Below, piece by piece: positions 29,317 to 52,490 of a DNA stretch of 64,000 bases. Positions within the stretch are counted from its first letter, which is position 1. Each line of letters starts with the position of its first letter. The notes under the pieces are model-generated. The model ran no database searches and was not told where the DNA came from. It saw only the letters and a list, made by a program, of their open reading frames with translations. The DNA comes from Gemmatimonadaceae bacterium (lineage in GTDB: Bacteria > Gemmatimonadota > Gemmatimonadetes > Gemmatimonadales > Gemmatimonadaceae), in assembly GCA_040902005.1 (NCBI GenBank), contig JBBDYA010000045.1, positions 99,933-163,932 of the forward strand. Reading direction: 5' to 3'. A program made the translations under genes and the position numbers.

Positions 29317-29639
29317 CGGTCGCTGACTGGATCGCCAGCCGCTCGCCGCAGGTGCCAGAGGCCCTTCGCCTCAGGATCATGACGGCCCTGGGCGACGCGT
29401 CGGACGATTCGCAGGAGCGCACCGCGGACGCCTGTTTTGCCGCCGCGACCCGACTGCTGGAGGGCCTTCTTGGCGAACGCCGCTTCGACCGCAGTGGAGC
29501 CATCGATCTGCTCACGGTGGACGCGCTGGTGACCTATGCCTGCGATCATGCCAGTGCATGCCGGAGCGCGTCGGAACTCGCGGCGTTTGTCAGACAGGGG
29601 CGTGGGACGATCAGTCACCTCGCGACCGCCCGTGTCTGA
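29313..29639 (+). CDS. Hypothetical protein
   Basis: 108-aa ORF overlapping the alaS stop (GTGA) and the gmhA start; contains A.DLL..DALVTYA. Confidence 0.6.
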
Positions 29640-30195
29640 CCGATTCGGCACGCCTCTCCGCGAGCTGGCGGACGTGGCGCAGCGAGCCGTCGCGGAGCTC
29701 GGTCCCGATCTCGAGCGCGCCTTCACGATGGTCCGCGACACAGTCCAGCGCGGCGGCACCCTGTTTTTTTGCGGGAACGGCGGAAGCGCCGCGGACGCAC
29801 AGCACATCGCCACCGAATACGTCGTGCGCTACCGGAGGAAGCGCCGCGCCTGCGCCGCAATCGCGCTGACGACGGACACGTCGCTGCTCACTGCCGCGGG
29901 AAACGATCTCGGCTTCGAGGAGGTGTTCGCGCGTCAGGTAGAAGCGCTCTGCAAGCCGGGGGACCTGCTCGTGATTCACACGACGAGCGGTAATTCCGCG
30001 AATCTGGTGCGGGCGGCCGAAGCGGCCCGCGACAAGCACGTGGACGTGCTGGCGATGAGTGCGCGCGATGGGGGCAGGCTGCTGGCACTCGCCACTCATA
30101 CGGTGGTCATCCCCACCGATCGCACGGACAGGGCACAGGAACTTCAGCTGTGCATCCAGCACGCCATCTGCGACGCCGTGGAGCAGGAGCTGTGA
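29632..30195 (+). CDS. gmhA: Phosphoheptose isomerase (SIS domain)
   Basis: CGNGGSAADAQHIATE, TAAGND.G, FARQVEAL, TTSGNS, QE..L...H. Confidence 0.88.
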   Translation: MSDRFGTPLRELADVAQRAVAELGPDLERAFTMVRDTVQRGGTLFFCGNGGSAADAQHIATEYVVRYRRKRRACAAIALTTDTSLLTAAGNDLGFEEVFARQVEALCKPGDLLVIHTTSGNSANLVRAAEAARDKHVDVLAMSARDGGRLLALATHTVVIPTDRTDRAQELQLCIQHAICDAVEQEL

Positions 30196-36879: not shown

Positions 36880-38160
36880 GTGGACCGCGCGCTCCTCGTG
36901 GGCGCGCCGCTCAAACGCGCGCGTGCGCGCGCGGATCTGCGCGAGCACCTCGACGAGCTCGCGCGACTGGTGGACACCGCGGGCGCCGTCATCGTGGGCG
37001 AGCTAACGCAACAGCTCGACCGTCCGCATGCCGCGACGTATCTCGGCGCTGGCAAGATCGATGAATTGCGGCAGATGGTCATCGACACGCAGGCCACCAT
37101 CGTCGTGTTCGACGACGAACTCTCGCCCTCGCAGGCGAAGAACATCGAGGACTCCATCGGGCAGCGGGTCGTCGACCGCGCGGAGTTGATTCTGGACATC
37201 TTCGCCACGCGGGCCCGCTCGGCAGAAGCGAAGGTGCAGGTCGAGTTGGCGCAACTGGAGTACATGCTCCCGCGCCTGACGCGCATGTGGACCCACCTCG
37301 AGAAGTTTCGCGGCGGTATCGGCGTCCGGGGTCCCGGCGAAACACAGCTGGAGACGGACCGCCGGCTGATCAGCCATCGCATCAAGCTTCTGCGTGCGAA
37401 GCTGCGCGAGGTCACAAAAGGGCGCGCCGTGCAGCGGCAGGGACGCCGTGGCGAGTTCAAGGCGTCCCTTGTCGGCTACACGAACGCGGGCAAGTCGTCG
37501 CTGCTGCGCTCGCTCGCGAACGCGCAGGACATCTTCGTGGAAGACCGGCTGTTCGCGACACTGGATCCGCTGACGCGGGAAGTGAAGCTCGACGACCACG
37601 CGAAGGCACTCGTGACCGACACGGTTGGCTTCATTCGCAAGCTCCCCCACCACCTGGTCGCGTCGTTTCGTGCGACGCTGGAGGAGGCGCGTGAGGCAGA
37701 CCTGCTGCTGCACGTGATCGACGCGTCGCACGCCATGTGGGAGGAGCAGCGCGGCGTAGTGGAGGACGTGCTGAAGAGCCTGGAGCTTCACGAGCGTCCG
37801 GCACTCCTGGTCTTCAACAAGGTGGACCTGCTGGACGAGCAGGAGCTCCTGGCGTTGCAGGAGCGCATGGCATCCGACGGGCAGGAGGCGGTCTTCGTGT
37901 CCGCCGTGAGCCCGGACGGCACCCTGCCGCTTCGCCGCGCCCTTCAGGGCGCCATGCGGGTTCGGCGCCCGCTCGCGGAGATCAACCTGTCGCCCGCCGA
38001 CGGGAAGATGCTCGCCGAGATTCATCAGTACGGCGAGGTGCTTGATCAGCGCACCATCGGAGAGCGGCTCGTCCTGCGCGCACGGATCGGCGAGAAGCTC
38101 GCGGGTCGACTGCGCCGGGCTGGCGCCATCGTCGACCGAGAGAATACCGCCGGGTCATGA
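36880..38160 (+). CDS. hflX: GTPase HflX (true start possibly ATC 36847)
   Basis: LILDIFA, QVELAQLEY, RGPGETQLETDRR, GYTNAGKS, LFATLDP, DTVGF, NKVD. Confidence 0.95.
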   Translation: MDRALLVGAPLKRARARADLREHLDELARLVDTAGAVIVGELTQQLDRPHAATYLGAGKIDELRQMVIDTQATIVVFDDELSPSQAKNIEDSIGQRVVDRAELILDIFATRARSAEAKVQVELAQLEYMLPRLTRMWTHLEKFRGGIGVRGPGETQLETDRRLISHRIKLLRAKLREVTKGRAVQRQGRRGEFKASLVGYTNAGKSSLLRSLANAQDIFVEDRLFATLDPLTREVKLDDHAKALVTDTVGFIRKLPHHLVASFRATLEEAREADLLLHVIDASHAMWEEQRGVVEDVLKSLELHERPALLVFNKVDLLDEQELLALQERMASDGQEAVFVSAVSPDGTLPLRRALQGAMRVRRPLAEINLSPADGKMLAEIHQYGEVLDQRTIGERLVLRARIGEKLAGRLRRAGAIVDRENTAGS

Positions 38161-39167
38161 TCGCCGTCGTCACCGGCGGCAGTGGCTTCATCGGCCGGAA
38201 TCTGATCCGGCGCCTGCTCGCGGACGGGCATCGGGTGCGGTGTCTCGTGCGTCCATCCGGGGGCGATCCGCCAGCCGACGTGGCGCGATATCTCGTTGCG
38301 CTGGACGATCCACGCGCGCTCGCGCGATGTCCCGCATTCGAGGGGGCGGACGTCGTCTTTCATCTCGCGGGCGCCACGAGGGCTGTCCGGTTCAGGGACT
38401 TTGCCACCGCCAACGTGGGGCCCACCCGGCAGCTGCTTGGCGCGCTGGCGCATCGGGGCCTCGGGCCACGGTTTGTATTCGTGTCGTCACAGGCGGCAGC
38501 GGGTCCTGCCACCACCGCGGACCGACCCGTGGTCGAGACGGATGAACCGCGTCCCATCGAGCCCTACGGCGCGAGCAAGCTCGAAGCCGAACGCGTGGTG
38601 CAGGCGCACTCGGATCGCGTGCCGGTCACGATTCTCAGGCCGTCAGCGGTGTTCGGCCCGCACGATCGCGATTTTCTCATGCTCTTCCGCATGGCTGTTC
38701 GCGGGATGATCCTGTACCCGGGCGTCGCGACGCACTGGCTGTCCCTCGTTCACGTGGATGACGTGGTGGACGCGCTTCTCGCGGTGGCCGTCCAGGACCG
38801 TGCCGTTGGGCGCACGTACTTCATCACCGCGCCGGATGCGATTCGCTGGCGCGCGTTGGGAGAGCAGGTCGGGTTGGTGACGGGGCGCGCGGTTCGCCAT
38901 GTCGATCTGCCGGCCCCGGTGGTGTTTGCCGCCGCGACCGTTGGCGACTGGTTCGGGCGCCTGACGCGTTCGACGCCGATCGCCACCCGGAGCAAGGCCG
39001 CGCTGTCGCGAGCGCCGTACTGGGTGTGTTCCGCGGCACGCGCGGGGGAGGAGCTTGGCGTTCGTGCCTCGCGTTCACTCCCTGACGCGCTGGCGGACAC
39101 GTACCTTTGGTATCGCCAACACGGATGGTTGCGCGGCCCGCGACGAGGCAGCGCGATCCCCGCCTGA
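38157..39167 (+). CDS. Extended SDR / NAD-dependent epimerase-dehydratase, candidate ceramide reductase (CerR-like)
   Basis: TGGSGFIG, HLAG, VSS, YGASK, RPSAVFGP.D. The CerR role is inferred from context. Confidence 0.8.
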   Translation: MIAVVTGGSGFIGRNLIRRLLADGHRVRCLVRPSGGDPPADVARYLVALDDPRALARCPAFEGADVVFHLAGATRAVRFRDFATANVGPTRQLLGALAHRGLGPRFVFVSSQAAAGPATTADRPVVETDEPRPIEPYGASKLEAERVVQAHSDRVPVTILRPSAVFGPHDRDFLMLFRMAVRGMILYPGVATHWLSLVHVDDVVDALLAVAVQDRAVGRTYFITAPDAIRWRALGEQVGLVTGRAVRHVDLPAPVVFAAATVGDWFGRLTRSTPIATRSKAALSRAPYWVCSAARAGEELGVRASRSLPDALADTYLWYRQHGWLRGPRRGSAIPA

Positions 39168-39177
39168 ACGATCCACG

Positions 39178-42100
39178 ATGTCCGCTCACTTTACATCTCC
39201 GACGCCACCAGCCCTCGCGGCTTCCCTCGACGATGATCGGCTGGTCGAGAGCTGTGAGACCCTGGTGGACCTGCTTCGCCGCCGTGCCGAGCAAGGCGGG
39301 GAGCGCGTGGTGTACCGTTTTCTCCCTGGCGACAACAAGCCGGAGCAGCGGATCACGTATAAGGAGCTGGATCGACGCGCGACGGCTCTCGCGTCGGCCA
39401 TTCGCCAGCATGCGAAGCCAGGAGAGCGCGCGCTAATCCTCGTGCCGTCCGGGCTGGACTACATCGCCACGTATTTCGCGTGCCTCTACGCCGGCGTGGT
39501 CGCCGTGCCGGCGTACCCTCCCAATCCGCGGCGTCCGGATCCGCGGATTCCCGGCATCGTGGCCGACTGTGAGCCGGTCGTTGCACTGACCACCGCCGCC
39601 CTGCTGGATCGACTGGAGCATTGGCGAGGAGGGGACGAGCGCCTCGGCGCGCTGCGCTGGCTTGCAGCCGACGCGCCCGTCGATCCATCGATTGCGCCCG
39701 TCGAGCATCAGGCGGGAGCGCACGACGTCGCCATGCTGCAGTACACGTCCGGCTCGACCGCCGCGCCGAAGGGGGTGGTGCTCACGCACGCCAATCTGCT
39801 GCACAACCTTTCGTTGATTCGGGCAGCGTTCAACGTCCGGCACGGGTCCGATGACGTGGGTGTGTTCTGGTTGCCGCCGTATCACGACATGGGGCTGATC
39901 GGCGGCATCCTCCAGCCTTGCTACGTGGGCCGCGGTGCCGTGCTGATGGCGTCCGCGACGTTTCTCCAGCGGCCGCTGTCGTGGCTGGAGGCCATGTCGA
40001 AGTATCGTGCGACGACGAGCGCCGCCCCGAACTTTGCGTTCGACATGTGCGTGGAACGCATCAAGCCCGAGGACATGCGCGGACTCGACCTGTCCGCGTG
40101 GCACACGGTCTTTGACGGTGCGGAGCCAATTCGAGCGGACACGATCGAGCGGTTCTCGAAAGCGTTCGCCGACGTCGGCTTCCGAAGCGAAGCGTTCTTT
40201 CCCTGTTACGGCCTCGCGGAGGCCACGCTGTTCGTGTCGGGCGGCCCCTGGGGCCACGGCCCGTACACGCTCGATGTCTCGCGGTCGGAGCTCGAGCACA
40301 CCCGCGCGCGCCCAGCCATGGCCGGGGACCGGCTGCGCCTGGTCTCATCGGGCGCGGCGGCTACCGGCCAGATGGTGCGCATCGTGAATCCGGACACGCT
40401 GGAGCCGCTGGACGATCGGCGGGTGGGTGAGATCTGGTGCAGCGGTCGAAGCGTGGCCGGCGGGTATTGGCGCAATCCTGCCGAGTCGACGCGCACCTTC
40501 GGGGCGACCCTTCCTGGTGATGGCGGGCGCTACCTGCGCACGGGCGACCTCGGTTTTCTGGACGACGGCCAGTTATTCGTTACCGGACGCCTCAAGGATC
40601 TCATCGTCCTTGCCGGACGAAACTATTACCCACAGGACATCGAGCTGGCCGCCGAGCGCAGCCACCCCAGTCTGCGGCCCGGCCATGCGGCCGCATTTCC
40701 GCTGGACGGCCCGACTCGCGAGTTGCTCGCGGTCGCGCTCGAGGTCACGCGGCATCATCGCGAGAGCGACAACGAGGCGGTATTTGCGGCCGTCCGTCGC
40801 GCGCTTGCGGGCCGCGCTGGCATTCTACCCGATGTCATTCTGCTGATCAGGCAGAACGGCATTCCGCGGACCTCGAGCGGCAAGGTGCAGCGCCGGGCGG
40901 CTCGCGCCATGCAGATCGAGAACACGCTGGATGTGCTCGCCCGGTCCGACGAAACGCTCGACGACATTGCGTTCGCGGTGTCCGACGGCGGCGATGTGAG
41001 CGCGGCGCCGCTGGAGGCGTGGCTGCGTCGCTGGGTCGCCGACGAGCTGCAGATCGACGTCCGCAGCGTGGATCCAACCGCGTCGGTGCGGGACTACGGC
41101 CTGGATTCCGTGGCGGCCGTTCGCCTGGTCACGGAGCTGGAGCAGGTCCTTGGCCACCGCGTTGACGTCGCGCTGCTCTGGCGCGAGCCCTCGATCCGAT
41201 CATTGTCGAAGGCGCTCGAATCTCGCGGGGCCGTGCTCTCGGCGAGCGAGGAAGACGAGCGCGCCGCTCGACGGAGCGACGAGCGACTGGTGTCACCACT
41301 CGCGGCGTCCGAGTTTCCGGAATATCGCCTGCTGCAAGCCAGGTTCGAGGAGCTGGACCGGCACGGCCTGGAGAACCCGTATTTCCGGGTGCACGACGGC
41401 GTGACGGGGAGCGCCGCGCGCATCGGCGGACGGGACGTCGTGAATTTCGCGAACTACAACTATCTCGGCCTGTCGGGCGACGAACGCGTGAACGTGGCCG
41501 CGGTCGAGGCAATCCGGCGCTACGGCACCTCGGTATCCGCGAGCCGTGTCGTCTCCGGCGAACGATCGGTCCACCAGGAGCTCGAGCAGGAGCTGGCCGG
41601 TTTCATCGGCGTGGAGGATTGCGTTCTCTTCATCGGTGGCGTGACCGCGAACGTGTCGACCATCGCGCACCTGGTTGGCGCCGGAGACGTGGTGCTCTGT
41701 GACGAACTGTTGCACAACAGCGCGATGCAGGGGGCGCTGTTCTCCGGAGCGCACCGTCTGGCCTTTCCGCACAACGACGCGGCGGCGGCGGATCGTCTCC
41801 TCGGCGAAGTGAGGGCGAAGTACCGACGGGCGCTGATCGTCATCGAAGGTGTCTACAGCGCGGACGGCGACATTCCGGACCTGGCGAGCTTCGTCGCCCT
41901 GAAGCGCCGGCATGAAGCCTGGCTGATGGTGGACGAAGCGCACTCGATCGGCGTCCTCGGCGCGACCGGGCGCGGGCTCGCGGAACATGCCGGCGTGTCA
42001 ACGCGAAGCGTGGACCTGTGGATGGGGACCCTGTCGAAGTCGCTCGCCAGCGTGGGAGGGTACATCGGCGCCCGCCGGGAAATCATCCAGTACCTGAAGT

Positions 42101-42492
42101 ACACGGCTCCGGGCTTCGTCTTCAGCGTCGGCATGGCACCCGCGAGTGCGGCCGCGGCGCTCGAAGCACTGCGTATCCTGCGGCGGGAGCCGCAGCGTGT
42201 GCAGGCGCTGCAGGCCAATGCGGCGCTGTTCCTCGAGCTGGCGAAGGGACACGGGTTGAACACCGGATCGAGCGCGAACACACCGATCATTCCGGTCATC
42301 ACCGGCGACTCGCTGCAGGCGGTACGCCTCTCGCAGCAACTGCTGGAGCACGGGATCAACGTGCAGCCAATGGTGGCGCCGTCAGTGAGCGAGTCGGGCG
42401 CCCGCCTGCGCTTTTTCGTCGCTTCCACGCATTCCCCCGATGACATCCAGCGGACGGTGGAATTGACGGCGTCTCTGGTCCGGCGTTCGTAA
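39178..42492 (+). CDS. Fatty acyl-AMP ligase - acyl carrier protein - PLP alpha-oxoamine synthase (SPT-like) fusion
   Basis: FAAL: LQYTSGSTAAPKGV, WLPPYHDMGLIG, CYGLAEAT, RTGDLG, PRTSSGK. ACP: GLDS (Ser codon 41107-41109). AOS: NYLGL, EGVYS.DGD, DEAHS, GTLSKS (Lys codon 42037-42039). Confidence 0.92.
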   Translation: MSAHFTSPTPPALAASLDDDRLVESCETLVDLLRRRAEQGGERVVYRFLPGDNKPEQRITYKELDRRATALASAIRQHAKPGERALILVPSGLDYIATYFACLYAGVVAVPAYPPNPRRPDPRIPGIVADCEPVVALTTAALLDRLEHWRGGDERLGALRWLAADAPVDPSIAPVEHQAGAHDVAMLQYTSGSTAAPKGVVLTHANLLHNLSLIRAAFNVRHGSDDVGVFWLPPYHDMGLIGGILQPCYVGRGAVLMASATFLQRPLSWLEAMSKYRATTSAAPNFAFDMCVERIKPEDMRGLDLSAWHTVFDGAEPIRADTIERFSKAFADVGFRSEAFFPCYGLAEATLFVSGGPWGHGPYTLDVSRSELEHTRARPAMAGDRLRLVSSGAAATGQMVRIVNPDTLEPLDDRRVGEIWCSGRSVAGGYWRNPAESTRTFGATLPGDGGRYLRTGDLGFLDDGQLFVTGRLKDLIVLAGRNYYPQDIELAAERSHPSLRPGHAAAFPLDGPTRELLAVALEVTRHHRESDNEAVFAAVRRALAGRAGILPDVILLIRQNGIPRTSSGKVQRRAARAMQIENTLDVLARSDETLDDIAFAVSDGGDVSAAPLEAWLRRWVADELQIDVRSVDPTASVRDYGLDSVAAVRLVTELEQVLGHRVDVALLWREPSIRSLSKALESRGAVLSASEEDERAARRSDERLVSPLAASEFPEYRLLQARFEELDRHGLENPYFRVHDGVTGSAARIGGRDVVNFANYNYLGLSGDERVNVAAVEAIRRYGTSVSASRVVSGERSVHQELEQELAGFIGVEDCVLFIGGVTANVSTIAHLVGAGDVVLCDELLHNSAMQGALFSGAHRLAFPHNDAAAADRLLGEVRAKYRRALIVIEGVYSADGDIPDLASFVALKRRHEAWLMVDEAHSIGVLGATGRGLAEHAGVSTRSVDLWMGTLSKSLASVGGYIGARREIIQYLKYTAPGFVFSVGMAPASAAAALEALRILRREPQRVQALQANAALFLELAKGHGLNTGSSANTPIIPVITGDSLQAVRLSQQLLEHGINVQPMVAPSVSESGARLRFFVASTHSPDDIQRTVELTASLVRRS

Positions 42493-42507: not shown

Positions 42508-43182
42508 ATGCCGTACGGCTACGTGGGAACGTGTCTCGGAACCGTGGCAGCGTCATCGGGCGCCGTCGCGGAACTCTGGTACGCGCGCGTGGGTGAGCAT
42601 GAAGCCCAGCTCGATCTGTACAGCCGCGACTATCTCTCCGAGGACGAGCAGCGGCGGCAGCGGAGGTATCGGGGACGTGGGGCTGCCGAGCGCTACGTAG
42701 TGACGCGCTCGCTCGTGCGGGGCGTATTGTCGGAGCGGCTCGGCGTGCCACCCCGCGAAGTGCCGGTCAATCGCACGGACACGGGCAAGCCGGTCATCAG
42801 CGGCGGCGTGCACTTCAACGTGAGCCACTCCGGAGACCTGATTCTGCTCGCCCTGAGCGTCGAGCGCGCGATCGGTGTCGACGTGGAGCGGCGACGCGAC
42901 ATCGCCCGCGTGGAGGCGCTGGTCCGGCGGTGGCTGTCGGAGACGGAGCGCACCGCGGTAGTACGGCTCGGCGCGATGGGCGCGTCACCCTCCGACGCCT
43001 TCCTCCGCGTCTGGAGCCTGAAGGAGGCGCGGCTGAAGGCGTTGGGGGTCGGCATCGCCGGACAGTCAGGGGCCGACGAGCTGCTCGCCGGCGTCGAAGT
43101 GAGTCCGCTGGACGACCTGCTGGCGTCGATCGCGACGGACGGTGACGATCAGGGCTATGTGGGCGCTGTAGCGTTCGCGTGA
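42508..43182 (+). CDS. Sfp-type 4'-phosphopantetheinyl transferase (start uncertain, possibly GTG 42544)
   Basis: GKP, FNVSHS, IGVDVE, WSLKEARLKALGVG. Confidence 0.9.
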   Translation: MPYGYVGTCLGTVAASSGAVAELWYARVGEHEAQLDLYSRDYLSEDEQRRQRRYRGRGAAERYVVTRSLVRGVLSERLGVPPREVPVNRTDTGKPVISGGVHFNVSHSGDLILLALSVERAIGVDVERRRDIARVEALVRRWLSETERTAVVRLGAMGASPSDAFLRVWSLKEARLKALGVGIAGQSGADELLAGVEVSPLDDLLASIATDGDDQGYVGAVAFA

Positions 43183-44000
43183 GCGCGGCGGGTGAGGCGC
43201 ATGCCGATCACGGCGACCGCCCCCCCCGCGAGCGCTCCAGCGATCACGTCTACCGCGTAGTGAAAGCCGCCATAGATCGCGCCGGCGGCCAGGGCCGTCG
43301 TGAGTCCCGCCAGCCACCAGCCGCGCGCCCCGAAGTAGCGCACCGCGAGAATGGATTGCGTCACCGCGACCGCCACGTGCGACGAGGGAAAGGCCGTGCC
43401 CTTGGAGGAGCGCGCTTCGAGCAGCCAGAGCGTGAACGCCCGCAGCGGTCCTGGCGCCATCCCGTGCGATTCGGACCACACGTACCGCGGCCCGGCGACG
43501 GGGAGGAGCAGGTAGCAGGCAAAACACGTCACGAATGCGAGCATCAGCACGAACACGGCGTCGTGGAACTCCGCGATGCGACGCCGGAGCCACAGCAGCA
43601 CGGGGACTGAAAAAACGATGGCGTAGTAACTCAGGTAGGCGCCATGCAGCATTTCGCTGACCGGCCTCCAGGGCATCTGGATCGCCCACGCCCGCGCCGG
43701 CTGGCCGCCGAACAGCGCCTGCTCCCATGCCATGACGCGCGCGTCGAAGAACCCGTCGTGCCCTACGGCCCGGATGAGCATGGGCATCTCGGAATACAGC
43801 AGCAGCAGCGCGAGCATCGGCGACCACTGTCGAAGCCACGTGGGAGCCCGTTGCCACCACGTGGCCGCGACGATCGCGGCCAGCAGCGCGAAGTGAACGA
43901 GTATGCCGACGCCAGAGACGCGATCGCGTCCGGCCAGGAGGAGGGTGCCGGTGACGGCGAGATAGCACACCAGGAGCGCGCCAGCCCATATTGCCCGCAT
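43155..44000 (-). CDS. PAP2-superfamily membrane enzyme, AUR1/inositol-phosphorylceramide-synthase-like
   Basis: About 7-8 TM segments; YLSYY, PVAGPRY, AFPSSH, HYAVDVIAG. Confidence 0.8.
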   Translation of the reverse strand: MRAIWAGALLVCYLAVTGTLLLAGRDRVSGVGILVHFALLAAIVAATWWQRAPTWLRQWSPMLALLLLYSEMPMLIRAVGHDGFFDARVMAWEQALFGGQPARAWAIQMPWRPVSEMLHGAYLSYYAIVFSVPVLLWLRRRIAEFHDAVFVLMLAFVTCFACYLLLPVAGPRYVWSESHGMAPGPLRAFTLWLLEARSSKGTAFPSSHVAVAVTQSILAVRYFGARGWWLAGLTTALAAGAIYGGFHYAVDVIAGALAGGAVAVIGMRLTRRAHANATAPT

Positions 44001-45147
44001 GTCGCTTGAGATCGTCCCCGTGGAGCGTGGCCGTGACCGCTCCGCTTTCATAGATGTGGCGTGGCACATACCGGAAGCCACGCGGCATCCCCGGTGGGTG
44101 CCGCCGCTGCGAATGATGGTGCGTGACCTGCTCGACACCAAGGGGAATCCCTTCTACCGAAACGCCGATCGGGCGCTGTTCATCGCGCGCCGCGACGGCC
44201 GCCCGGTGGGGCGCATCGCCGCCATCGAGAACCGCGCCCACAACCGAGCCCACTCCGACCGGACCGGGTTCTTCGGCTTCTTCGAGTGCGTCGATGATGC
44301 TGCGGCCGCGAGCGCCCTGTTCGACGCCGCGGAGCGATGGTTGGCGGCACGGGGGCTGACGGCGATGCGGGGCCCCATGAGTCCGTCGACGAACCACGAG
44401 TGCGGCCTGCTGGTCGAGGGTGTCGACGAGCACCCGATGTTTCTCACACCGTGGAATCCTGCGTATTACGAAAGGCTCATCCTGGGGGCCGGTTTCACCA
44501 CCATCCGTGATTTACTCGGCTACTGGCTACCGTATGGCGAGCCGGGCTTCCAGCTTGCGCCGAGAATCGAAGCAATGGCCTTACGGGCAAAGGCCAGGGC
44601 GAACCTCGCATTTCGCGACATGGAGGCCGCCCGATTCTGGCAGGATGTGGAGCTGGTCTGGGAGATCTACAATTCCGCATGGGAGCGGAACTGGGGGTTT
44701 GTGCCCATGACGCGCGACGAATTCCTGCACATGGCCAGGTCGCTCAAGCCACTTCTGGTACCCCGGTTTGCCTTTCTCGCGGAAGTGGACGGCGTTCCCG
44801 CCGGGTTCATGCTCTCGGCTCCCGATTTCAATCGCGCCATCAGACGCATCGGGAACGGGCGGCTGTTGCCGTTCGGGTTCGTTCGGCTGTTGCGCGAACG
44901 ATCGCGCGCGCGCACGGGACGCGTTATCGCGTTCGGCATCCGGGAACAGTTCCGCAACCAGAGTGTGCTGCCGGTATTCATGCATGAGGCGGCGAGACGC
45001 GCCATCGCCTACGGGTCTCCCGGCTCGGAGGCGTCCTGGATCCTGGAGGACAACGTGGGCATGCGGCAGGGCATCGAGGCGTTCGGCGGTCGCGTGTATC
45101 GTCGCTGGCGGATCTTCGAGCGCCAGATCGCGCCCCGCCCCGCGTGA
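43999..45147 (+). CDS. Tandem-GNAT N-acyltransferase, bacterial ceramide synthase (bCerS)-like
   Basis: WVPPL, NPFY, VGRIAA, GFFGFFE, GP, ECGLLVEG, NPAYY, YNSAWERNWGFVP, SWILEDN; family recognised from memory. Confidence 0.78.
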   Translation: MSLEIVPVERGRDRSAFIDVAWHIPEATRHPRWVPPLRMMVRDLLDTKGNPFYRNADRALFIARRDGRPVGRIAAIENRAHNRAHSDRTGFFGFFECVDDAAAASALFDAAERWLAARGLTAMRGPMSPSTNHECGLLVEGVDEHPMFLTPWNPAYYERLILGAGFTTIRDLLGYWLPYGEPGFQLAPRIEAMALRAKARANLAFRDMEAARFWQDVELVWEIYNSAWERNWGFVPMTRDEFLHMARSLKPLLVPRFAFLAEVDGVPAGFMLSAPDFNRAIRRIGNGRLLPFGFVRLLRERSRARTGRVIAFGIREQFRNQSVLPVFMHEAARRAIAYGSPGSEASWILEDNVGMRQGIEAFGGRVYRRWRIFERQIAPRPA

Positions 45148-45148
45148 C

Positions 45149-46270
45149 GTGAGCGCGCGACGCATCGCGATCGTCAGCGACTGGTTCGCGCCCCGACGCG
45201 GCGGAATCGAAGCGCAGCTGGCGCAGCTCGCGCAGCGCCTGGGCGCGCGCGGACATGCGGTGGACGTGTTCACCTCCACGCCTGGCGCGCGCGAGGGCGA
45301 GGGGTACCGGGTTCGGCCGGCCGATGTCTGGACGCTGCCGGCGCTGCATCTCGCGGCGTCGCCGCGGCTCGTGCAGCGCCTGCGCCGCCAGCTGGACCAG
45401 GGGTACGACGTCGTGCACGCGCACGTGAGCGTGGTGTCGCCACTGGGATACGCTGGGGCGATTGCTGCGCGGTCGCTCGGACTCCCAACGGTCCTGACCT
45501 TTCACTCGGTGCTGCACGCCAAGGCCCACGTGTTGCGGGCCGCGAGCGCCGTGCTCGATCTCCCGGCGAGCGCCATCGTGTGGACGGCTGTCAGCCGGCT
45601 CGTCGCGTTACAGGCGAAAAAGGCGATGGGCGTGCCCGTGCTCGAGTTGCCGAACGGCATCGAGCTGGCCGAGTGGCGCACCCTCCCCGGCGCGAGGACG
45701 CTGGAGACGCCGGTCACGATCGTGTCCGCGATGCGACTTCACCGAAAGAAGAGACCGAGGCAGCTGGTGGCGGCGTTCGCCCGCGCGGCCAAGCATGCGC
45801 GGCGACCGGCTCGTCTGCTCATCGTCGGCGATGGACCGGAACGCTCCGCGCTCGACCACGACATTCGCGCGCTCGGACTGAACGATGGTCCATCCCGCGT
45901 TGAGCTCCACGGCTGGGTGAACCCGAACGGATTGCGGGCCATGTACGGGGGAGCCCACGCGTTCGCGCTGGCGTCCCGGAACGAATCGTTCGGGATCGCG
46001 GCCCTCGAGGCGCGGGCCGCGGGCCTGCCAGTCATCGCGATGCGCCAGTCCGGGAGCAGCGAGTTTCTCGAGGACGGAACGGACGCGCTGCTGTGCGATG
46101 ACGACGCGGACCTGTCACGCGCCCTGACCGAGGTGATTCGGGATGGCGCGCTCCGCGGGTGCCTGGGGCAACGGATTCCCGGCCTCGAGCGGTACGACTG
46201 GAGCGCCGTCCTGAACGGCCACGAGGCCGCCTACCAGCTGGCTACGACGCGCGCAACCGCCGTGGCATGA
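45149..46270 (+). CDS. GT4 family glycosyltransferase (PimA/PIG-A-like N-terminus)
   Basis: VSDWFAPRRGGIE, VVHAH, TFHS, PNGI, GDGP, ESFGIAALEA (EX7E). Confidence 0.88.
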   Translation: MSARRIAIVSDWFAPRRGGIEAQLAQLAQRLGARGHAVDVFTSTPGAREGEGYRVRPADVWTLPALHLAASPRLVQRLRRQLDQGYDVVHAHVSVVSPLGYAGAIAARSLGLPTVLTFHSVLHAKAHVLRAASAVLDLPASAIVWTAVSRLVALQAKKAMGVPVLELPNGIELAEWRTLPGARTLETPVTIVSAMRLHRKKRPRQLVAAFARAAKHARRPARLLIVGDGPERSALDHDIRALGLNDGPSRVELHGWVNPNGLRAMYGGAHAFALASRNESFGIAALEARAAGLPVIAMRQSGSSEFLEDGTDALLCDDDADLSRALTEVIRDGALRGCLGQRIPGLERYDWSAVLNGHEAAYQLATTRATAVA

Positions 46271-47225
46271 GTTGGCGAAGCGTGAGCAGCGCGTAGCCGG
46301 TGCCGATGGAGGGCAGCAGGAAGCAGAGATGCTGGACGACCGCCAGCCCCAGCGCGGTTTCCGCAGGTGTGCCCACGAAGCGGTACACCGCGAACACGGT
46401 CGCCTCGTAGATCCCGAGGTTGGCGGGCGCGATCGGGACCAGCGTCGACAGGGCGAGCGCGGCGACGATCAGGACGGCGGTGGAGAGCGAGGGTTCAACT
46501 CCGAACGCTGCCTGCACGGCCAGCACGGCTGCCACCTCTGCGGCCTTCTTGAGGAGCGTCAGGACGGCGACCTGCCAAAGGCGGCGCGGCTCGCGCAGCG
46601 CATCCAGGTGCTGTCCCCACGCCGCGAGCGCGCCGAGGAGGCGGCGAGTGGTCGTGGGCATCGCGAGCAATCGCTCCCGGATCGCACTCCAATGGTGTGC
46701 GAGCGGAACGAGAAGGGCGAGCGACGCGACCAGCACCAGCAGCAGGAGCACGAAACCCTTGCGCAGCCAGATCGGGATGGGCGCGATGGCGACCGCGAGC
46801 GAAAGCACCGACAGCTTCGCGAATGCCACGAGCAGCTGATCCATCGCAAGCACCGAGAGCGCCGCGCCGCGCGAGAGCCCGGCCCGTGCAATCAGCAGCG
46901 CTACCGCGGACGCCTCCCCCGCGAGAAAAGGCACCGAGTTCAACACGCTCGCGGTCACGGCGACTACCTCGAACATCCGCGCGTACAGTATGCGCGCGGT
47001 TCCTGGCACCAGGATCCGCCATTCGAGCGCCCAGAGTGGCAGGATGGCGAAGTTGACCGCCAGGGCAAGGACGAGCCACATGGGCTTCACTCGTTGCAGC
47101 TCGGCTACGGCGCGATCCAGCGGCAGCGTTCGCAGCACCTGGACGAGTGCGAGTGTCAACGCGAGCCACAGAATCGGGAGCAGCCACGCCGTGACGGTCG
47201 ACCGGCGGACGGCGGCGATCGTCAT
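46242..47225 (-). CDS. Lysylphosphatidylglycerol-synthase TM-domain (MprF/UPF0102-unrelated flippase-like) membrane protein
   Basis: Multi-TM; NSVP..AGE and PIAPANLGIYE motifs typical of LPG-synthase TM proteins; ATGA coupling with the deacetylase. Confidence 0.78.
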   Translation of the reverse strand: MTIAAVRRSTVTAWLLPILWLALTLALVQVLRTLPLDRAVAELQRVKPMWLVLALAVNFAILPLWALEWRILVPGTARILYARMFEVVAVTASVLNSVPFLAGEASAVALLIARAGLSRGAALSVLAMDQLLVAFAKLSVLSLAVAIAPIPIWLRKGFVLLLLVLVASLALLVPLAHHWSAIRERLLAMPTTTRRLLGALAAWGQHLDALREPRRLWQVAVLTLLKKAAEVAAVLAVQAAFGVEPSLSTAVLIVAALALSTLVPIAPANLGIYEATVFAVYRFVGTPAETALGLAVVQHLCFLLPSIGTGYALLTLRQLMPRRLRAS

Positions 47226-47962
47226 GCGGCCGCCAGTTGGGCACCGAGGCGGTCCATGCGAACAAACGTCGCGCCGCGGCGCTGAAAGAGATCGATGACT
47301 TCGCGCACGGCGCGCAGTGCCGGCTCGCCCGTGCGGAATCGACAGTCGAGACGCAGTCGCTCCCGCGTCAGGTCCACGAACTCCCATGGGTGCACGAACA
47401 GCACGACCGGCGAAGCGAGCGACAGCAGCCAGCGGTCGCGCAGCCAGCGCGGAAGGCGCAGCACAGAGGACGTCATCGATGCGGGGATGCGCGTCAGCGG
47501 GGTGCGCGCGGGCGGGCCGTAGTACTCCGCCTTGTACCTGGCCTGTGACGAGTCGACGAGATATCCCTCCTCCACCAGCAGTGGCAGACAGGCGGTCGGC
47601 AAGCGCAGGTTGGGCGCGCGGAAGGACGTCACCGGCGCTCCGAACGCCCTCAACGCCGCCGTTGCCGCGCGCAGGTCCAGTTGTGCGTCCGCGGGAGGCA
47701 TCCGGTCGAAGCGCTGATGCGTGTGTCCATGACATCCCAGCTCGTGCCCGCGAGCGATCACGTCACGGATACGCGCGGGAAAGCGCTCCGCCACCTGACC
47801 GGTGCAGAAACAAGTCGCGACGACGCCCGCCTCATCGATCGCATCCAGCACCCTCGGCAAACCCTCCTCGATCCCGCGATATTGCGTCGCGAGATACGGC
47901 GGACAGTCGGGCTCCACGTCCACGCCGAGCGAAACGGCCAGCTTTCCGGGGAATGTGTTCAT
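47222..47962 (-). CDS. Polysaccharide deacetylase (NodB/CE4 fold)
   Basis: VDVE, ATCF, HELGCHGHTH, FRAP, VDSS, HPWEF. Confidence 0.88.
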   Translation of the reverse strand: MNTFPGKLAVSLGVDVEPDCPPYLATQYRGIEEGLPRVLDAIDEAGVVATCFCTGQVAERFPARIRDVIARGHELGCHGHTHQRFDRMPPADAQLDLRAATAALRAFGAPVTSFRAPNLRLPTACLPLLVEEGYLVDSSQARYKAEYYGPPARTPLTRIPASMTSSVLRLPRWLRDRWLLSLASPVVLFVHPWEFVDLTRERLRLDCRFRTGEPALRAVREVIDLFQRRGATFVRMDRLGAQLAAA

Positions 47963-49590: not shown

Positions 49591-49664
49591 TGGTCCCGGT
49601 GGGACTCGAACCCACGACCCGACGATTATGAGTCGCCTGCTCTAACCGGCTGAGCTACGGGACC
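49591..49664 (-). tRNA. tRNA-Ile2 (anticodon CAT, lysidine type); CCA not encoded
   Basis: Reverse complement GGTCCCGTAGCTCAGCCGGTTAGAGCAGGCGACTCATAATCGTCGGGTCGTGGGTTCGAGTCCCACCGGGACCA folds as a cloverleaf; the AGGCGACTCATAATCG arm matches the ileX-type tRNA. Confidence 0.88.
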
Positions 49665-49676
49665 GCGACCTTCAAT

Positions 49677-50720
49677 CTATGCTTTGCGACCGCGCGTCGC
49701 GCCGCGCTTTCCAGACGACGCAGGAACGGCCGGCGTTGCGAAATGGTCGTACGCGTCGAGCACCTCGGCTGGCGAGACGGTCGCTGCCCCCAGCTTTCCG
49801 ACCTCGACCCCCGCCGCGTAGTTGGCGATGACCGCCGCCTCCTCGGCGGTGCCGCCGGCGCCGAGCACCGTCGCCAGGTAGGCGGTGACCGTATCACCGG
49901 CACCGACGACGTCGTAGACCTCCCGAGCCACCGTGGAGACCGATTTCAACCCGCCCCCGCGTGAGGCGAGCACCATTCCGCGTTCCCCGAGCGTCAGGAG
50001 CAGGTGCGCCACGCCGAGACGCTCCATCGCGGCGGGAATCGCTTCGGGGTGCTCGAGATCGACGGCCGCACCGAGCGCCGATTCCAGTTCCCGGCGGTTC
50101 GGCTTGAACACCGTGGCGCCCCGGTAGGTGAAGAAATGGCGGTACTTCGGGTCGACGATGACGGGAATCTTCCGGGCGCGCGCCACCTCGATGGCGTTCG
50201 TGATCACTGAGGGAACGAGCACACCCTTGTTGTAATCCTCGAGAATCAGGGCTTGCGCGTCGGTCAGTGCACTGGCGATCGCCTCGCTGATTCGTGCGGC
50301 GTCCGAGGCCCCGAGATCGGCATCCTCTTCATCGTCGATGCGCACGAGCTGCTGGGACCGCGCCAGCACGCGTGTCTTCCGGGTCGTTGGCCGCGGGACA
50401 GTGAGAAGCCCCTCCGCGGACACGCCGCTCGCCAGCAGCATCTCCCGGATCTGCTGCCCGGAGGCATCGCTTCCGACCGCGCAGACCATCCGGCATCGGG
50501 CGCCAGCGGCGACAACGTTCTGCGCGACGTTCGCGGCGCCGCCCAGCGCGAAGCGTCGCTCCCGTACCCGCACGACTGGCACCGGGGCCTCGGGCGAAAT
50601 GCGCTCGACATCGCCCACGAGATATTCGTCGAGCATGGCGTCGCCCACCGCCACGACGCAAACATCCAGGGCCAGGCCCAACAGCTCCTCCAGGCGAGCT
50701 CGACTGATAGATAAGGGCAT
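49677..50720 (-). CDS. D-glycero-beta-D-manno-heptose-7-phosphate kinase (RfaE domain I / HldA, PfkB family)
   Basis: GDAMLDEY, RISPEAPVPV, GGAANVA, DYNKG, KPNRRE, DVVGAGDTV. Confidence 0.9.
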   Translation of the reverse strand: MPLSISRARLEELLGLALDVCVVAVGDAMLDEYLVGDVERISPEAPVPVVRVRERRFALGGAANVAQNVVAAGARCRMVCAVGSDASGQQIREMLLASGVSAEGLLTVPRPTTRKTRVLARSQQLVRIDDEEDADLGASDAARISEAIASALTDAQALILEDYNKGVLVPSVITNAIEVARARKIPVIVDPKYRHFFTYRGATVFKPNRRELESALGAAVDLEHPEAIPAAMERLGVAHLLLTLGERGMVLASRGGGLKSVSTVAREVYDVVGAGDTVTAYLATVLGAGGTAEEAAVIANYAAGVEVGKLGAATVSPAEVLDAYDHFATPAVPASSGKRGATRGRKA

Positions 50721-50820
50721 GGGGCAAGATAAGCCCCCGGCACACGCCTTGCCTCCACCGGACTCGGCAAGGTGCGCACGCAAATGCGCGTATCTCGTCA
50801 CGTCACCTCGCTCAACTCCC

Positions 50821-51636
50821 TTGTCAGAACTGATTCTCCGCCTGAACGCGCGGGCCAAAAGCGCCGTGCAGACGCTTCAGGAATATTTCGAACTGGCCTG
50901 GAATGCGGTCCGATTCATCTTTGCGCGCCCGTTCTACGCACAGGACGTGGTTCAGCAGATGGACGAGATCGGTGTGAAATCCCTGGGCATCGTCCTCCTG
51001 ACCGGGCTGTTCACGGGGATGGTGCTGGCTCTCCAATCCAGCATTCAGCTGCAGACGTTCGGCGCCACGATGTACATCGGCCGGCTTGTGGCTGGATCGA
51101 TGATCCGGGAACTGGGGCCAGTACTCGCTGGACTGATGGTCGCCGGCCGCGTGGGGTCCGGGATCGCGGCGCAGTTGGGGTCGATGAAGGTGACGGAGCA
51201 GATCGATGCCCTCAACACGCTGGGGACCGACCCGATCAAGAAGCTGGTGACGCCCCGCCTGATCGCGGCGCTCATCATGCTCCCCGTGCTCACGATCATC
51301 AACGACATGGTCGGGATATTCGGTGGCAATCTCATTGCGACGCTGATGCTCGGGCTGCCGACATCGCTGTACTGGCGCACCGTATGGGAACAGATCATCT
51401 CTGGCGGATTCGTCTTCGGCTTCATCCCGAACGATTTCGTGCAGGGGCTGCTGAAGCCCCTCATGTTCGGGGCGATCATTGCCATCACCGCGTGCTTTTT
51501 CGGTTTGCGCACGACCGGGGGCACCGAGGGCGTTGGCCAGTCCACGACCAAGGCGGTCGTGACGTCGAGCATTCTGATTCTGGTGAGCGACTACTTCCTC
51601 ACGCAGATCCTCCTCTCCGTTCTGCACGCGCCATGA
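50821..51636 (+). CDS. mlaE: MlaE-family ABC lipid transporter permease (start uncertain)
   Basis: RELGPVLAGLMVAGRVGSGIAAQLGSMKVTEQIDAL, GGTEGVG..TT.AVV. Confidence 0.9.
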   Translation: MSELILRLNARAKSAVQTLQEYFELAWNAVRFIFARPFYAQDVVQQMDEIGVKSLGIVLLTGLFTGMVLALQSSIQLQTFGATMYIGRLVAGSMIRELGPVLAGLMVAGRVGSGIAAQLGSMKVTEQIDALNTLGTDPIKKLVTPRLIAALIMLPVLTIINDMVGIFGGNLIATLMLGLPTSLYWRTVWEQIISGGFVFGFIPNDFVQGLLKPLMFGAIIAITACFFGLRTTGGTEGVGQSTTKAVVTSSILILVSDYFLTQILLSVLHAP

Positions 51637-52490
51637 CGCAGGAACTTCGCCGCAAGGGCGAGCGCAAATCAGGCCATGTGCGCGAGGCCATCCGCCAGGA
51701 GCTGGCGACGGACAGCGCGGCGATGCCAGCCGAGGACGCTGTCGAAGCGGGTGCGCGGCCCCCCGTGATCGAAATGCAGGACGTCAGCCTCGCGTTCGAT
51801 GTGCCCATCCTCGAGGACATCTCGTTCAAGGCACACGAGGGTGAGACCATCGTCATCGTCGGTGAATCCGGCACGGGGAAATCCACCGCGCTCAAGCTGA
51901 TGCTGCGCCTGTTGGTGCCGCAGAAGGGACGCGTGCTCGTGGATGGCGAGGACATCACGGATCTGTCATTCGAGGAAGCGCTCGTGGTGCGACAGAAAAT
52001 GGGGATGGTGTTTCAGGGCGCCGCGCTGTTCGACTCGCTCACGGTCTTCGAGAACATCGCCTATCCGCTTCGCGAACACACGCGCATGTCGGACGACGAG
52101 ATCGAGCAGCGGGTTCGCGAGAAGCTGGCGTTCGTGGATCTCGAGGCGGACGAGGTGATGGACAAGCTCCCGTCCGAGCTGTCGGGCGGCATGCGCAAAC
52201 GGGTCGGGATCGCCCGTGGGATGGCCAACGATCCCGAGGTGATGCTGTACGACGAACCCACGTCGGGACTGGATCCGCTCACGACGGGCACGATTACGCG
52301 GCTCATCCTGAAGCTCCAGCGGGAGCTCAAGGTCACCAGCATCGTCGTGTCCCACGACATCCGTTCGGCGTTCCGGATGGCCACCAAGATCGCGCTGCTG
52401 CACGACCATCGCATCTCCTTTTTCGGCACGCCGGAGGAAATGTCGGCCGCCGAGGATCCGTACATCCATGACTTTCTCGGTGGACTCTGA
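51633..52490 (+). CDS. mlaF: MlaF-family ABC ATPase
   Basis: GESGTGKS, FQGAALFDS, LSGGMRKRVGIAR, YDEPTSGLDP, SHD. Confidence 0.9.
   Translation: MTQELRRKGERKSGHVREAIRQELATDSAAMPAEDAVEAGARPPVIEMQDVSLAFDVPILEDISFKAHEGETIVIVGESGTGKSTALKLMLRLLVPQKGRVLVDGEDITDLSFEEALVVRQKMGMVFQGAALFDSLTVFENIAYPLREHTRMSDDEIEQRVREKLAFVDLEADEVMDKLPSELSGGMRKRVGIARGMANDPEVMLYDEPTSGLDPLTTGTITRLILKLQRELKVTSIVVSHDIRSAFRMATKIALLHDHRISFFGTPEEMSAAEDPYIHDFLGGL

Follow-up and report, generated by a model that had tools for sequence, protein, structure and literature searches.

A FAAL-type acyl-ACP synthetase, a special ACP and an oxoamine synthase act together in Caulobacter crescentus and E. coli BL21(DE3), where these three activities are divided among AasR, AcpR and Spt (PMC9386255, PMC11324152). 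CerR (epi) and bCerS (aca, YghO) are found alongside, with bCerS apart from the biosynthetic operon. A second system, PfSgaAB(C) of Pseudomonas fluorescens MYb115, belongs to a Pseudomonas cluster of SgaB type that makes sphingolipids (PMC12134224). Its oxoamine synthase PfSgaB is a stand-alone protein that is supplied by an iterative PKS for C24-C28 bases, makes 3-KDS and almost exclusively selects L-serine in preference to alanine and glycine (PMC12134224). A three-domain layout denoted A-CP-PLP2 is listed for Microscilla marina A1ZVW4 and Blastopirellula marina A3ZWL3 in Table 2 of PMC3870968. The product is given there as unknown, and no link to ceramide genes is drawn in the sections covered. 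The same paper models the AOS domain of B1XHP8, an AMP-binding enzyme from Synechococcus PCC 7002, on S. multivorum SPT.

Here we describe a gene of the A-CP-PLP2 layout in the window, a stretch of 64,000 nucleotides from the genome of an uncultured Gemmatimonadaceae bacterium. The gene is situated among ceramide-finishing genes and therefore most likely starts sphingolipid synthesis on one chain. The encoded protein is probably a self-loading serine palmitoyltransferase, equivalent to AasR, AcpR and Spt on a single chain, which would provide 3-ketosphinganine-type bases for ceramide. The features of the locus are listed in Table 1.

Table 1. Features of the fusion locus, in positions of the window.
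Feature	Position	Strand	Properties
CerR/Epi-type NAD-dependent reductase, predicted 3-keto reductase	38157..39167	+	336 aa; PF01370
FAAL-ACP-alpha-oxoamine synthase fusion	39178..42492	+	1104 aa; single open frame, no internal stop
FAAL domain	39241..40947	+	about aa 22-590; best solved relatives are FAALs
ACP domain	41008..41235	+	about aa 611-686; PF00550 E 3e-16, above cut-off
PLP-dependent alpha-oxoamine synthase (AOS) domain, SgaB/RkpG clade	41311..42489	+	His846, Asp919, His922, Lys954 (42037), Arg1078
Sfp-type phosphopantetheinyl transferase (PPTase)	42508..43182	+	224 aa; PF22624 and PF01648
PAP2_3 membrane protein, candidate ceramide head-group transferase	43179..44000	-	273 aa; PF14378 E 5e-17
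bCerS/YghO-type N-acyltransferase, predicted bacterial ceramide synthase	43999..45147	+	382 aa
GT4 glycosyltransferase (accessory)	45149..46270	+	PF00534/PF13439; at 10 of the 13 fusion loci
LPG-synthase-TM flippase-like membrane protein (accessory)	46242..47225	-	PF03706 E 9e-29; synteny
Polysaccharide-deacetylase-family protein (accessory)	47222..47962	-	PF01522 E 2e-16; synteny

The original prediction of one chain of about 1100 amino acids that combines FAAL, ACP and a PLP-dependent AOS, without a KS or AT domain, is borne out by the open frame and the Pfam domains. The scan of the fusion returned six families in total, including AMP-binding (aa 34-431, E 2e-66), its C-subdomain (aa 474-585), PP-binding (aa 615-680, E 3e-16) and Aminotran_1_2 (aa 753-1095, E 2e-46); KS, AT and TE are all missing. 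The motifs are located where they had been placed, namely GLDS with Ser644 at 41107, DEAHS at 41932 and GTLSKS with Lys954 at 42037. In the predicted structure (mean pLDDT 83.2), linkers of low confidence (aa 594-609 and aa 685-708) separate three domains. In a structure comparison with this model FAAL structures rank first, and the last domain leads to S. multivorum SPT. A sequencing or assembly error that joins separate genes had been named as grounds for abandoning the prediction, and the data contradict it. All three motifs are present in 117 of the 120 homologs listed (a number that includes the window's own protein), the 3 exceptions being partial proteins. Every one of the 10 further genomes searched in the genus also has the fusion, with a full open frame in 8, a cut at a contig end in 1 and frameshifted pieces in 1. 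A contig from another, independent study spans the FAAL-ACP junction with 44 letter differences in 1188 and no gap, the ACP-AOS linker being outside the coverage of the pieces listed from that study. Because of this recurrence in homologs, genus genomes and an independent contig, the fusion is not an assembly artefact. GC content and GC3 do not distinguish the locus from neighbouring genes, scans for promoters and terminators at the locus gave matches at chance level only, and no RNA dataset is among the listed holders of the sequence.

The best solved relatives of the FAAL domain are FAALs (7r7f, E 5e-153); the domain is 44% identical to the cyanobacterial olefin-synthase FAAL and 35% identical to E. 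coli AasR. The residues that block the CoA pocket are kept (W231, M238 and F286, corresponding to EcFAAL W224, M231 and F279, in a map inferred from PMC8460268 and from the AasR alignment, where the offset is constant): W231 is invariant, and M238 and F286 occur in 44 of 44 aligned homologs. A FAAL-specific helix is expected at approximately aa 258-266, where the model shows a helix at aa 259-264. The alternative pocket, lined by Pro, Thr and Ser, is represented by S91, P114 and P233, which align to T83, P107 and P226. By its CoA block and ACP pocket the domain is a member of the FAAL family, and loading of the ACP without acyl-CoA is predicted. The proposal that the protein activates a free acid, loads its cis ACP and condenses the acyl group with an amino acid, bypassing acyl-CoA at that step, fits these residues.

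Within the ACP, the phosphopantetheine site Ser644 is part of a GxDS motif and is shared by every one of the 44 aligned homologs, and the model places helices at aa 611-686, consistent with a four-helix carrier protein. A comparison with E. coli AcpR gave no significant match. The PPTase gene, which had been described as directly following and dedicated, starts 16 nt past the fusion stop codon and adjoins the fusion at 10 of the 13 Gemmatimonadota fusion loci. The adjacency stands; dedication is unsupported. This gene is the only PF01648 match and the only PPTase found in the source genome.

The AOS domain contains the stacking His, the DxAH motif, the TxSK lysine and the C-terminal Arg of the alpha-oxoamine synthase family (key residues His846, D919-H922, T951-K954 and R1078). 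Its best solved relative is S. multivorum SPT (E 4.5e-69), and the domain model has a TM score of 0.91 to 8guh and 3a2b. The PLP and substrate residues His138, His213, Lys244, Ser81* and Ser273* of S. multivorum SPT are kept, and the position of Asn52 is taken by Tyr760, as in PfSgaB. The domain falls within a 26-row clade (support 100/100) together with L152, a PKS-linked Pseudomonas protein that is 51% identical to it, and L153, which we take to be RkpG although its record does not carry that name. Compared by eye, L152 matches the published PfSgaB sequence across long stretches, and the motifs YNY, SVSASR, DELxHNS and FxxSVG are common to the AOS domain and the printed PfSgaB. Inside this clade, the fusion and the SgaB-like row do not come out as sisters. 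E. coli Spt, to which the AOS domain is 34% identical, and the stand-alone Spts of Gemmatimonadota form a separate clade (100/99). The domain scores below the cut-offs of the curated NCBIfam Spt models NF047599/600/603 (319.5/640, 299.8/500 and 201/670 bits), as does the SgaB-like L152.

An RkpG/WcbT-like segment had been given as a ground to doubt serine as the substrate. The same segment is found in the serine-selective PfSgaB (PMC12134224), and by sequence it points towards serine, not away from it. The phosphate loop (aa 820-822) reads GGV, where SgaB has SGH and S. multivorum SPT has TGF, with V822 found in 35 of 44 aligned homologs; the active site is therefore not identical to that of a tested enzyme. 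Cysteate is an unlikely substrate: cysteate acyltransferases score 161 and 152 bits versus 237 bits for SPTs (the AOS tree held no CFAT row), and no cysteate synthase was found above cut-off in the source genome (TIGR03844, 90.7/324.9 bits).

The upstream CerR homolog is 30% identical to E. coli BL21 Epi over nearly its full length (310 columns, E 4e-35) and is the best match of Epi in the genome (E 4e-30). The downstream bCerS homolog is 34% identical to E. coli BL21 YghO over its full length (383 columns, E 7e-70) and is the only YghO match in the genome (E 5e-56). Judged solely by pairwise E-values with the E. coli BL21 proteins, both pass the threshold for ceramide genes (E at most 1e-30, coverage at least 50%; PMC11334938). 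Each of the 13 Gemmatimonadota fusion loci fetched has both homologs flanking the fusion, and the genes are arranged in at least four different orders; this count omits L001 and L002, which have the same gene order and are possible duplicates, as well as G306. As CerR/Epi and bCerS/YghO homologs, absent from the original prediction, flank the fusion, ceramide is the likely end product. The PAP2_3 gene occurs at 11 of the 13 loci and also in the stand-alone spt operons L147, L148, L149 and L168; its family, PF14378, is presumably the one that contains Aur1. Genes for an inositol-phosphate synthase and a CDP-alcohol transferase are found on the same contig. Solved-structure searches gave no solved relative for the PAP2_3 protein and nothing useful for the bCerS homolog. 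Two of the 13 loci (L136 and L137) lack the GT4 block, and one of these also lacks PAP2. A Wzi-family gene is also located within the locus. All five known ceramide functions, as defined in PMC9386255, are represented in the fusion locus.

Two oxoamine synthases are all that the source genome contains: the fusion itself and a Kbl next to tdh. The fusion is therefore the sole candidate supplier for bCerS and CerR. A stand-alone Gemmatimonadota Spt ortholog (59-100% identity) is present in 5 of 5 genomes chosen for the stand-alone type and in none of the 15 fusion genomes, several of which are only 81-89% complete, where the best matches reach at most 41% identity. Since ten of these 15 share one genus, they are not independent samples. 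As the probable serine palmitoyltransferase of this lineage, the fusion would take the place of the stand-alone Spt used by most other Gemmatimonadota. bCerS homologs occur in 188 of 301 Gemmatimonadota genomes. Those of fusion loci are 53-73% identical to the bCerS of the window, versus 39-46% in most stand-alone operons, in keeping with a cassette that moved as a whole; given these differing identities, an in-place swap of spt alone within one conserved operon is unsupported as a simple story. An intermediate case is G283, where a stand-alone Spt and a divergent PAP2 occur with a bCerS of the closer type (54%). Among planctomycete and cyanobacterial fusion loci, 0 of 7 have a CerR or bCerS match inside the fetched flanks. 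In one relative (G077), an acyl-CoA-dehydrogenase-like domain is inserted ahead of the ACP.

In the proposed pathway, the Sfp-type PPTase would prime Ser644, and the FAAL domain, which has the family residues, would adenylate a free long-chain fatty acid and transfer it to the cis ACP instead of CoA. Two chains would together form the PLP sites through their oxoamine synthase domains, as in the family, and condense acyl-ACP with L-serine to a 3-ketosphinganine-type base and CO2; no thioesterase would be needed, since the condensation itself would free the base. By homology and synteny, the bCerS homolog would then N-acylate the base and the CerR homolog reduce the ketone, in either order, to yield dihydroceramide. 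More speculatively, the head group is probably provided by the PAP2_3 protein together with the GT4, deacetylase and flippase-like genes. A more far-reaching reading, which as a whole we regard as unlikely, is that the locus encodes, in portable and complete form, the synthesis of a glycosyl-inositol-phosphoceramide resembling those of eukaryotes. The PAP2_3 protein would then add phosphoinositol to the bCerS/CerR ceramide in the manner of Aur1, and a free amino sugar would come from the GT4, deacetylase and flippase-like genes by GlcNAc transfer and subsequent deacetylation, similar to the GPI core. The extra domain of G077 would desaturate the chain prior to condensation, resulting in sphingosine-like bases without a separate desaturase.

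The same assembly line could feed a ceramide-type pathway with alanine, glycine or another amino acid, resulting in 1-deoxy or unusual long-chain bases. We regard this as improbable, even though the GGV loop is unlike that of tested SPTs. Water-mediated contacts largely govern substrate choice in the family, and Ala, Gly and homoserine are also accepted by S. multivorum SPT (PMC10196870). The incomplete loci L136 and L137 would also be in line with such bases. The nearest tested relative, PfSgaB, is however serine-selective, and most loci retain the candidate PAP2_3 transferase, which would require a serine-derived base with its 1-hydroxyl.

Considerably less probable is that the amino-ketone serves as an anchor for a capsule or surface polymer, similar to Rkp/Wcb, or as a secondary metabolite, and not as a precursor of membrane ceramide. 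The nearest plasmid matches do adjoin PKS and capsule genes, Wzi-family, GT4 and deacetylase genes lie within the locus, and the fusions of other phyla lack bCerS and CerR nearby. Yet Wzi, GT4 or deacetylase are missing from some of the 13 loci, CerR and bCerS from none; the ORF list around the gene contains no KS, prolyl-carrier or capsule-export genes; and the related Pseudomonas cluster is a sphingolipid producer. A BioF enzyme of the biotin pathway, or separate genes fused by assembly error, is very improbable and largely refuted. JGI records carry the automatic name '8-amino-7-oxononanoate synthase'; bioF (TIGR00858) scores highest of the NCBIfam models on the AOS domain, albeit below cut-off (343/426 bits). 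However, in this 93%-complete genome bioB is below cut-off and bioD has no match, E. coli BioF, with 29% identity, lies at a distance in the tree, and the fusion recurs in more than 100 independent assemblies. Both were rejected on these grounds.

If the serine palmitoyltransferase reading is true, a three-domain family that was catalogued in 2013 with its product unknown (PMC3870968) gains a function. The reading would add a third feeding mode of bacterial sphingolipid synthesis, in which the fatty acid is captured and condensed on one chain, to diffusible acyl-CoA or a separate AcpR and to PKS supply, and would provide a CoA-free one-protein catalyst of long-chain amino-ketones. Genome surveys by Spt models or 'BioF' labels would then overlook ceramide producers and, given the frequency of bCerS homologs, Gemmatimonadota would be an unrecognised environmental source of ceramide.

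With respect to known systems, the locus has in common with Caulobacter and E. coli the predicted FAAL-type loading of an ACP for an oxoamine synthase, the accompanying CerR and bCerS homologs and the placement of bCerS away from the biosynthetic operon. Caulobacter and E. coli use three proteins where a single chain is found here, and the parts of the fusion are not orthologs of AasR, AcpR and Spt, as the AOS belongs to another clade and the ACP lacks a significant AcpR match. RedL combines an ACP and an oxoamine synthase on one chain. The same holds, with a serine-using synthase, for PigH (PMC3870968). PigH and RedL-RedN require KS/AT or pyrrolyl-carrier partners, which are not seen here, and make pyrroles. 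The fusion shares the oxoamine synthase clade and motif set of PfSgaAB(C), but has FAAL and ACP in cis, no KS and, unlike that system, accompanying bCerS/CerR homologs. The stand-alone spt-bCerS-cerR-PAP2 operon of most Gemmatimonadota has the same companion genes as the fusion; its Spt is Bacteroidota-like (NF047600, 525-533 bits), and the fetched loci lack FAAL and ACP. The literature searched, with subscription journals mostly outside its reach, contained neither a biochemical account of a FAAL-ACP-AOS protein nor work on the lipids of Gemmatimonadota. Earlier listings may exist in Table S1 of PMC3870968, Supplementary Data 2 of PMC11334938 and the tables of PMC12820801. The domain layout as such was already catalogued in 2013 (PMC3870968); new here are the full ceramide context and the exchange with the stand-alone Spt.

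The fusion gene encodes a FAAL, an ACP and an oxoamine synthase (AOS) domain in one frame of 1104 codons that is open throughout. The Pfam scan of the protein recovered no KS, AT or thioesterase domain; frame and domains thus bear out the original prediction of a single-chain enzyme without KS or AT, and the ACP serine and the PLP lysine both lie where it had placed them. The AlphaFold model (alignment of 44 rows) contains three confident domains and two disordered linkers. In structure comparison FAALs rank first, and the last domain matches the S. multivorum SPT with a TM score of 0.91. The names of close homologs place the source genome in Gemmatimonadota.

Features of the fusion locus and its surroundings (window positions; aa, residues of the fusion protein)
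Feature	Position	Strand	Remark
CerR/Epi homolog	38157-39167		upstream gene
Fusion gene	39178-42492	+	
AMP-binding	aa 34-431		Pfam; C-subdomain aa 474-585
Linkers	aa 594-609, 685-708		disordered
PP-binding	aa 615-680		Pfam
ACP serine	41107		Ser644
Aminotran_1_2	aa 753-1095		Pfam
PLP lysine	42037		Lys954
PPTase gene	42508-43182		Sfp-type
PPTase/PAP2 overlap	43179-43182		convergent ends
PAP2/bCerS starts	43970-44030	-/+	head to head
YghO/bCerS homolog	43999-45147	+	
GT4/LPG overlap	46242-46270		convergent ends
tRNA-Met(CAT)	49591-49664		end of accessory block
gmhA-like and rfaE-like heptose genes, MlaE/F/D-like lipid ABC transporter, polysaccharide export protein	29536-30195, 49677-50729, 50338-53477, 53799-56366		named by reading alone

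The fusion is real and conserved. Among the 120 best homologs listed (54-80% identity), which include the window's own protein, 117 combine the FAAL, ACP and AOS motifs in a single chain, and the three misses are partial proteins. The gene is present in each of the 10 further genus members whose genomes were searched, in 8 of them as one full frame with 69-78% identity; it is truncated by a contig end in genome G306 and split into frameshifted pieces in another. The FAAL-ACP junction is also crossed gap-free by a contig of a different study, and together these results dispose of an assembly error joining separate genes. Only 3 of 300 genomes drawn evenly across the phylum harbor the full fusion (G294, G251 in two pieces, and G077 with an insert), which is therefore a lineage trait; related fusions also occur in Planctomycetota and Cyanobacteriota. 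The G077 gene (locus L142:7600-12546) encodes a 1649-aa FAAL-acyl-CoA-dehydrogenase-ACP-AOS protein, with a CerR homolog on one side and PAP2 and bCerS homologs on the other; this four-domain protein would predict an unsaturated long-chain base. Four genus loci (L131, L136, L137, L139) have an additional ~210-aa gene with a twin-arginine-like start between fusion and PPTase, which is absent from the window.

The PPTase gene directly follows the fusion, as predicted. The label "dedicated" is not supported, since the source genome has no other PF01648 match than this enzyme and the gene is missing at 3 of 13 fusion loci. It is likewise the only such match in 5 of the 9 other genus genomes searched; AcpS was not found in the source genome, a result in which incomplete assemblies could hide acpS. 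The cluster PPTase may additionally prime the housekeeping ACP. The best solved relatives of the FAAL domain are the Synechococcus olefin-synthase FAAL and a Legionella FAAL, and it shares 35% identity with E. coli BL21 AasR. Using the EcFAAL residues in the accessible part of PMC8460268 and a constant offset inferred from the AasR alignment, the CoA-pocket blockers map to W231, M238 and F286, the FAAL-specific helix to aa ~258-266, and the alternative-pocket residues to S91, P114 and P233. The mapped residues argue for the predicted bypass of acyl-CoA at the first step. Only this step would be CoA-free, because the second acyl chain may still derive from acyl-CoA.

A PDB sequence search with the AOS domain ranks the S. 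multivorum SPT first (E 4.5e-69), with Kbl, BioF, HemA and cysteate acyltransferases scoring lower; no NCBIfam model reaches its cut-off. In a tree of 46 rows the domain falls inside a 26-row clade (100/100) of PKS-linked and ACP-fused enzymes, whose internal branching is largely open, and E. coli Spt groups with the stand-alone Gemmatimonadota Spts in a different clade (100/99); Kbl and BioF also lie apart. The clade includes a Sinorhizobium protein, which we take to be RkpG, and a Pseudomonas plasmid protein located after a type I PKS (locus L152; 51% to the fusion AOS). Neither bioB, bioD nor cysteate synthase was found in the source genome, and we consider it highly improbable that the protein is a BioF or an artefact. 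An RkpG/WcbT-like segment had originally been read as leaving the amino-acid substrate in doubt. The likeness stands, given the clade and the segments common to PfSgaB and the fusion, the flagged ones included (YNYLG, YGTSVSASR, DELxHNS, WMGTLSK); PfSgaB (PMC12134224 supplement sequence) resembles the L152 protein over long stretches when compared by eye. Purified PfSgaB converts C16-C20 acyl-CoAs to 3-KDS and selects serine, nearly to the exclusion of alanine and glycine (PMC12134224), so the resemblance favors a serine enzyme. The PLP- and serine-surrounding residues of the S. multivorum SPT, as described in the accessible part of PMC10196870, are retained in the fusion; its Asn52 corresponds to Tyr760, the same as in SgaB, and aa 820-822 are GGV versus SGH in SgaB. 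An amino acid other than serine is in our estimation unlikely.

Most likely, the fusion is a self-loading serine palmitoyltransferase that opens a ceramide pathway. The upstream gene shares 30% identity with Epi/CerR of E. coli BL21, and the gene at 43999-45147 shares 34% with YghO/bCerS across its full length; queried against the source genome, both proteins find these flanking genes as best or only matches. Five dihydroceramide genes are described in the accessible parts of PMC9386255 and PMC11324152: aasR, acpR, spt, cerR/epi and cerS/aca. Homologs of CerR and bCerS are present at all 13 fusion loci fetched from the G-numbered genomes, together with PAP2 (11), PPTase (10) and GT4 (10), the companion genes being arranged in several orders. 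Other Gemmatimonadota show spt-bCerS-cerR(-PAP2), with a Bacteroidota-like stand-alone Spt. Orthologs of the latter (at least 59%) were found in 5 of 5 genomes picked for this type; the 15 fusion genomes, 11 of which belong to one genus and some of which are 81-89% complete, yielded none. The source genome contains as oxoamine synthases only the fusion and a Kbl adjoining tdh. At seven planctomycete and cyanobacterial loci, five of them planctomycete, the fetched flanks contained neither CerR nor bCerS (two have an SDR), and hence the layout may serve other products outside Gemmatimonadota. For the source genome, a product other than ceramide appears improbable, and we hold the serine-derived ceramide to be the probable reading. 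In the phylum survey, bCerS homologs occur in 188 of 301 genomes, with 124 of 125 in one family versus 10 of 69 in the source genome's own, where the pathway looks patchy. In a distant Gemmatimonadota genome (G005), an SgaABC-type cluster is linked to bCerS: locus L143 contains a bCerS homolog together with a PKS, a stand-alone SgaB-clade AOS and an SgaC-like SDR.

What the analysis shows is the domain content, the signature residues, the clade, the synteny and the absence of a second Spt. After priming of Ser644, a free long-chain fatty acid would be adenylated and transferred to the cis ACP. The protein would dimerize via its AOS domains, AOS-family active sites being built from both subunits (accessible part of PMC10196870), and decarboxylative condensation with L-serine would free the chain in the same step. 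N-acylation and reduction, whose order is still disputed in Caulobacter, would yield dihydroceramide. More speculatively, the PAP2_3 protein might transfer a head group (Bacteroides BT_1522 is an Aur1-like PI-ceramide synthase; PMC9246714, accessible part), and the GT4, deacetylase and flippase-like genes might add sugar decoration.

The start codons of the PAP2 and bCerS genes overlap. Of the 10 genus loci examined, 9 have the sequence CCATATTG 6-7 nt upstream of the bCerS ATG; it puts a rare ATA codon into the PAP2 frame and is possibly the -10 box of a leaderless bCerS mRNA. The overlapping convergent gene ends make antisense overlap or a non-contiguous operon possible. At L171:20-2076 (source genome G000, contig C45, ~49 kb before the window start) a CDP-alcohol phosphatidyltransferase gene is followed by one for myo-inositol-1-phosphate synthase, so the source genome can probably make phosphatidylinositol. 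LpxC is present as well, and the predicted lipid would therefore coexist with LPS.

The fusion is not mentioned in the accessible parts of PMC12820801, PMC11334938, PMC8895605, PMC10411912, bioRxiv 2023.11.08.566215 and PMC13692747, and our literature search found no assay of a FAAL-ACP-AOS protein, though supplements may list such proteins. The chemistry is known and the architecture has a precedent: the accessible part of PMC3870968 lists an A-CP-PLP(AOS) layout with unknown product for Microscilla and Blastopirellula (Table 2). What the locus offers is a straightforward and inexpensive way to test an uncharacterised family, and unusually complete genomic support. The logic of FAAL-type synthetase, special ACP and Spt is established in trans (PMC9386255, accessible part), and AasR-AcpR-Spt works in the same mode as proposed for the fusion, whose AOS domain, however, falls outside the canonical Spt families and belongs to the SgaB/RkpG clade.
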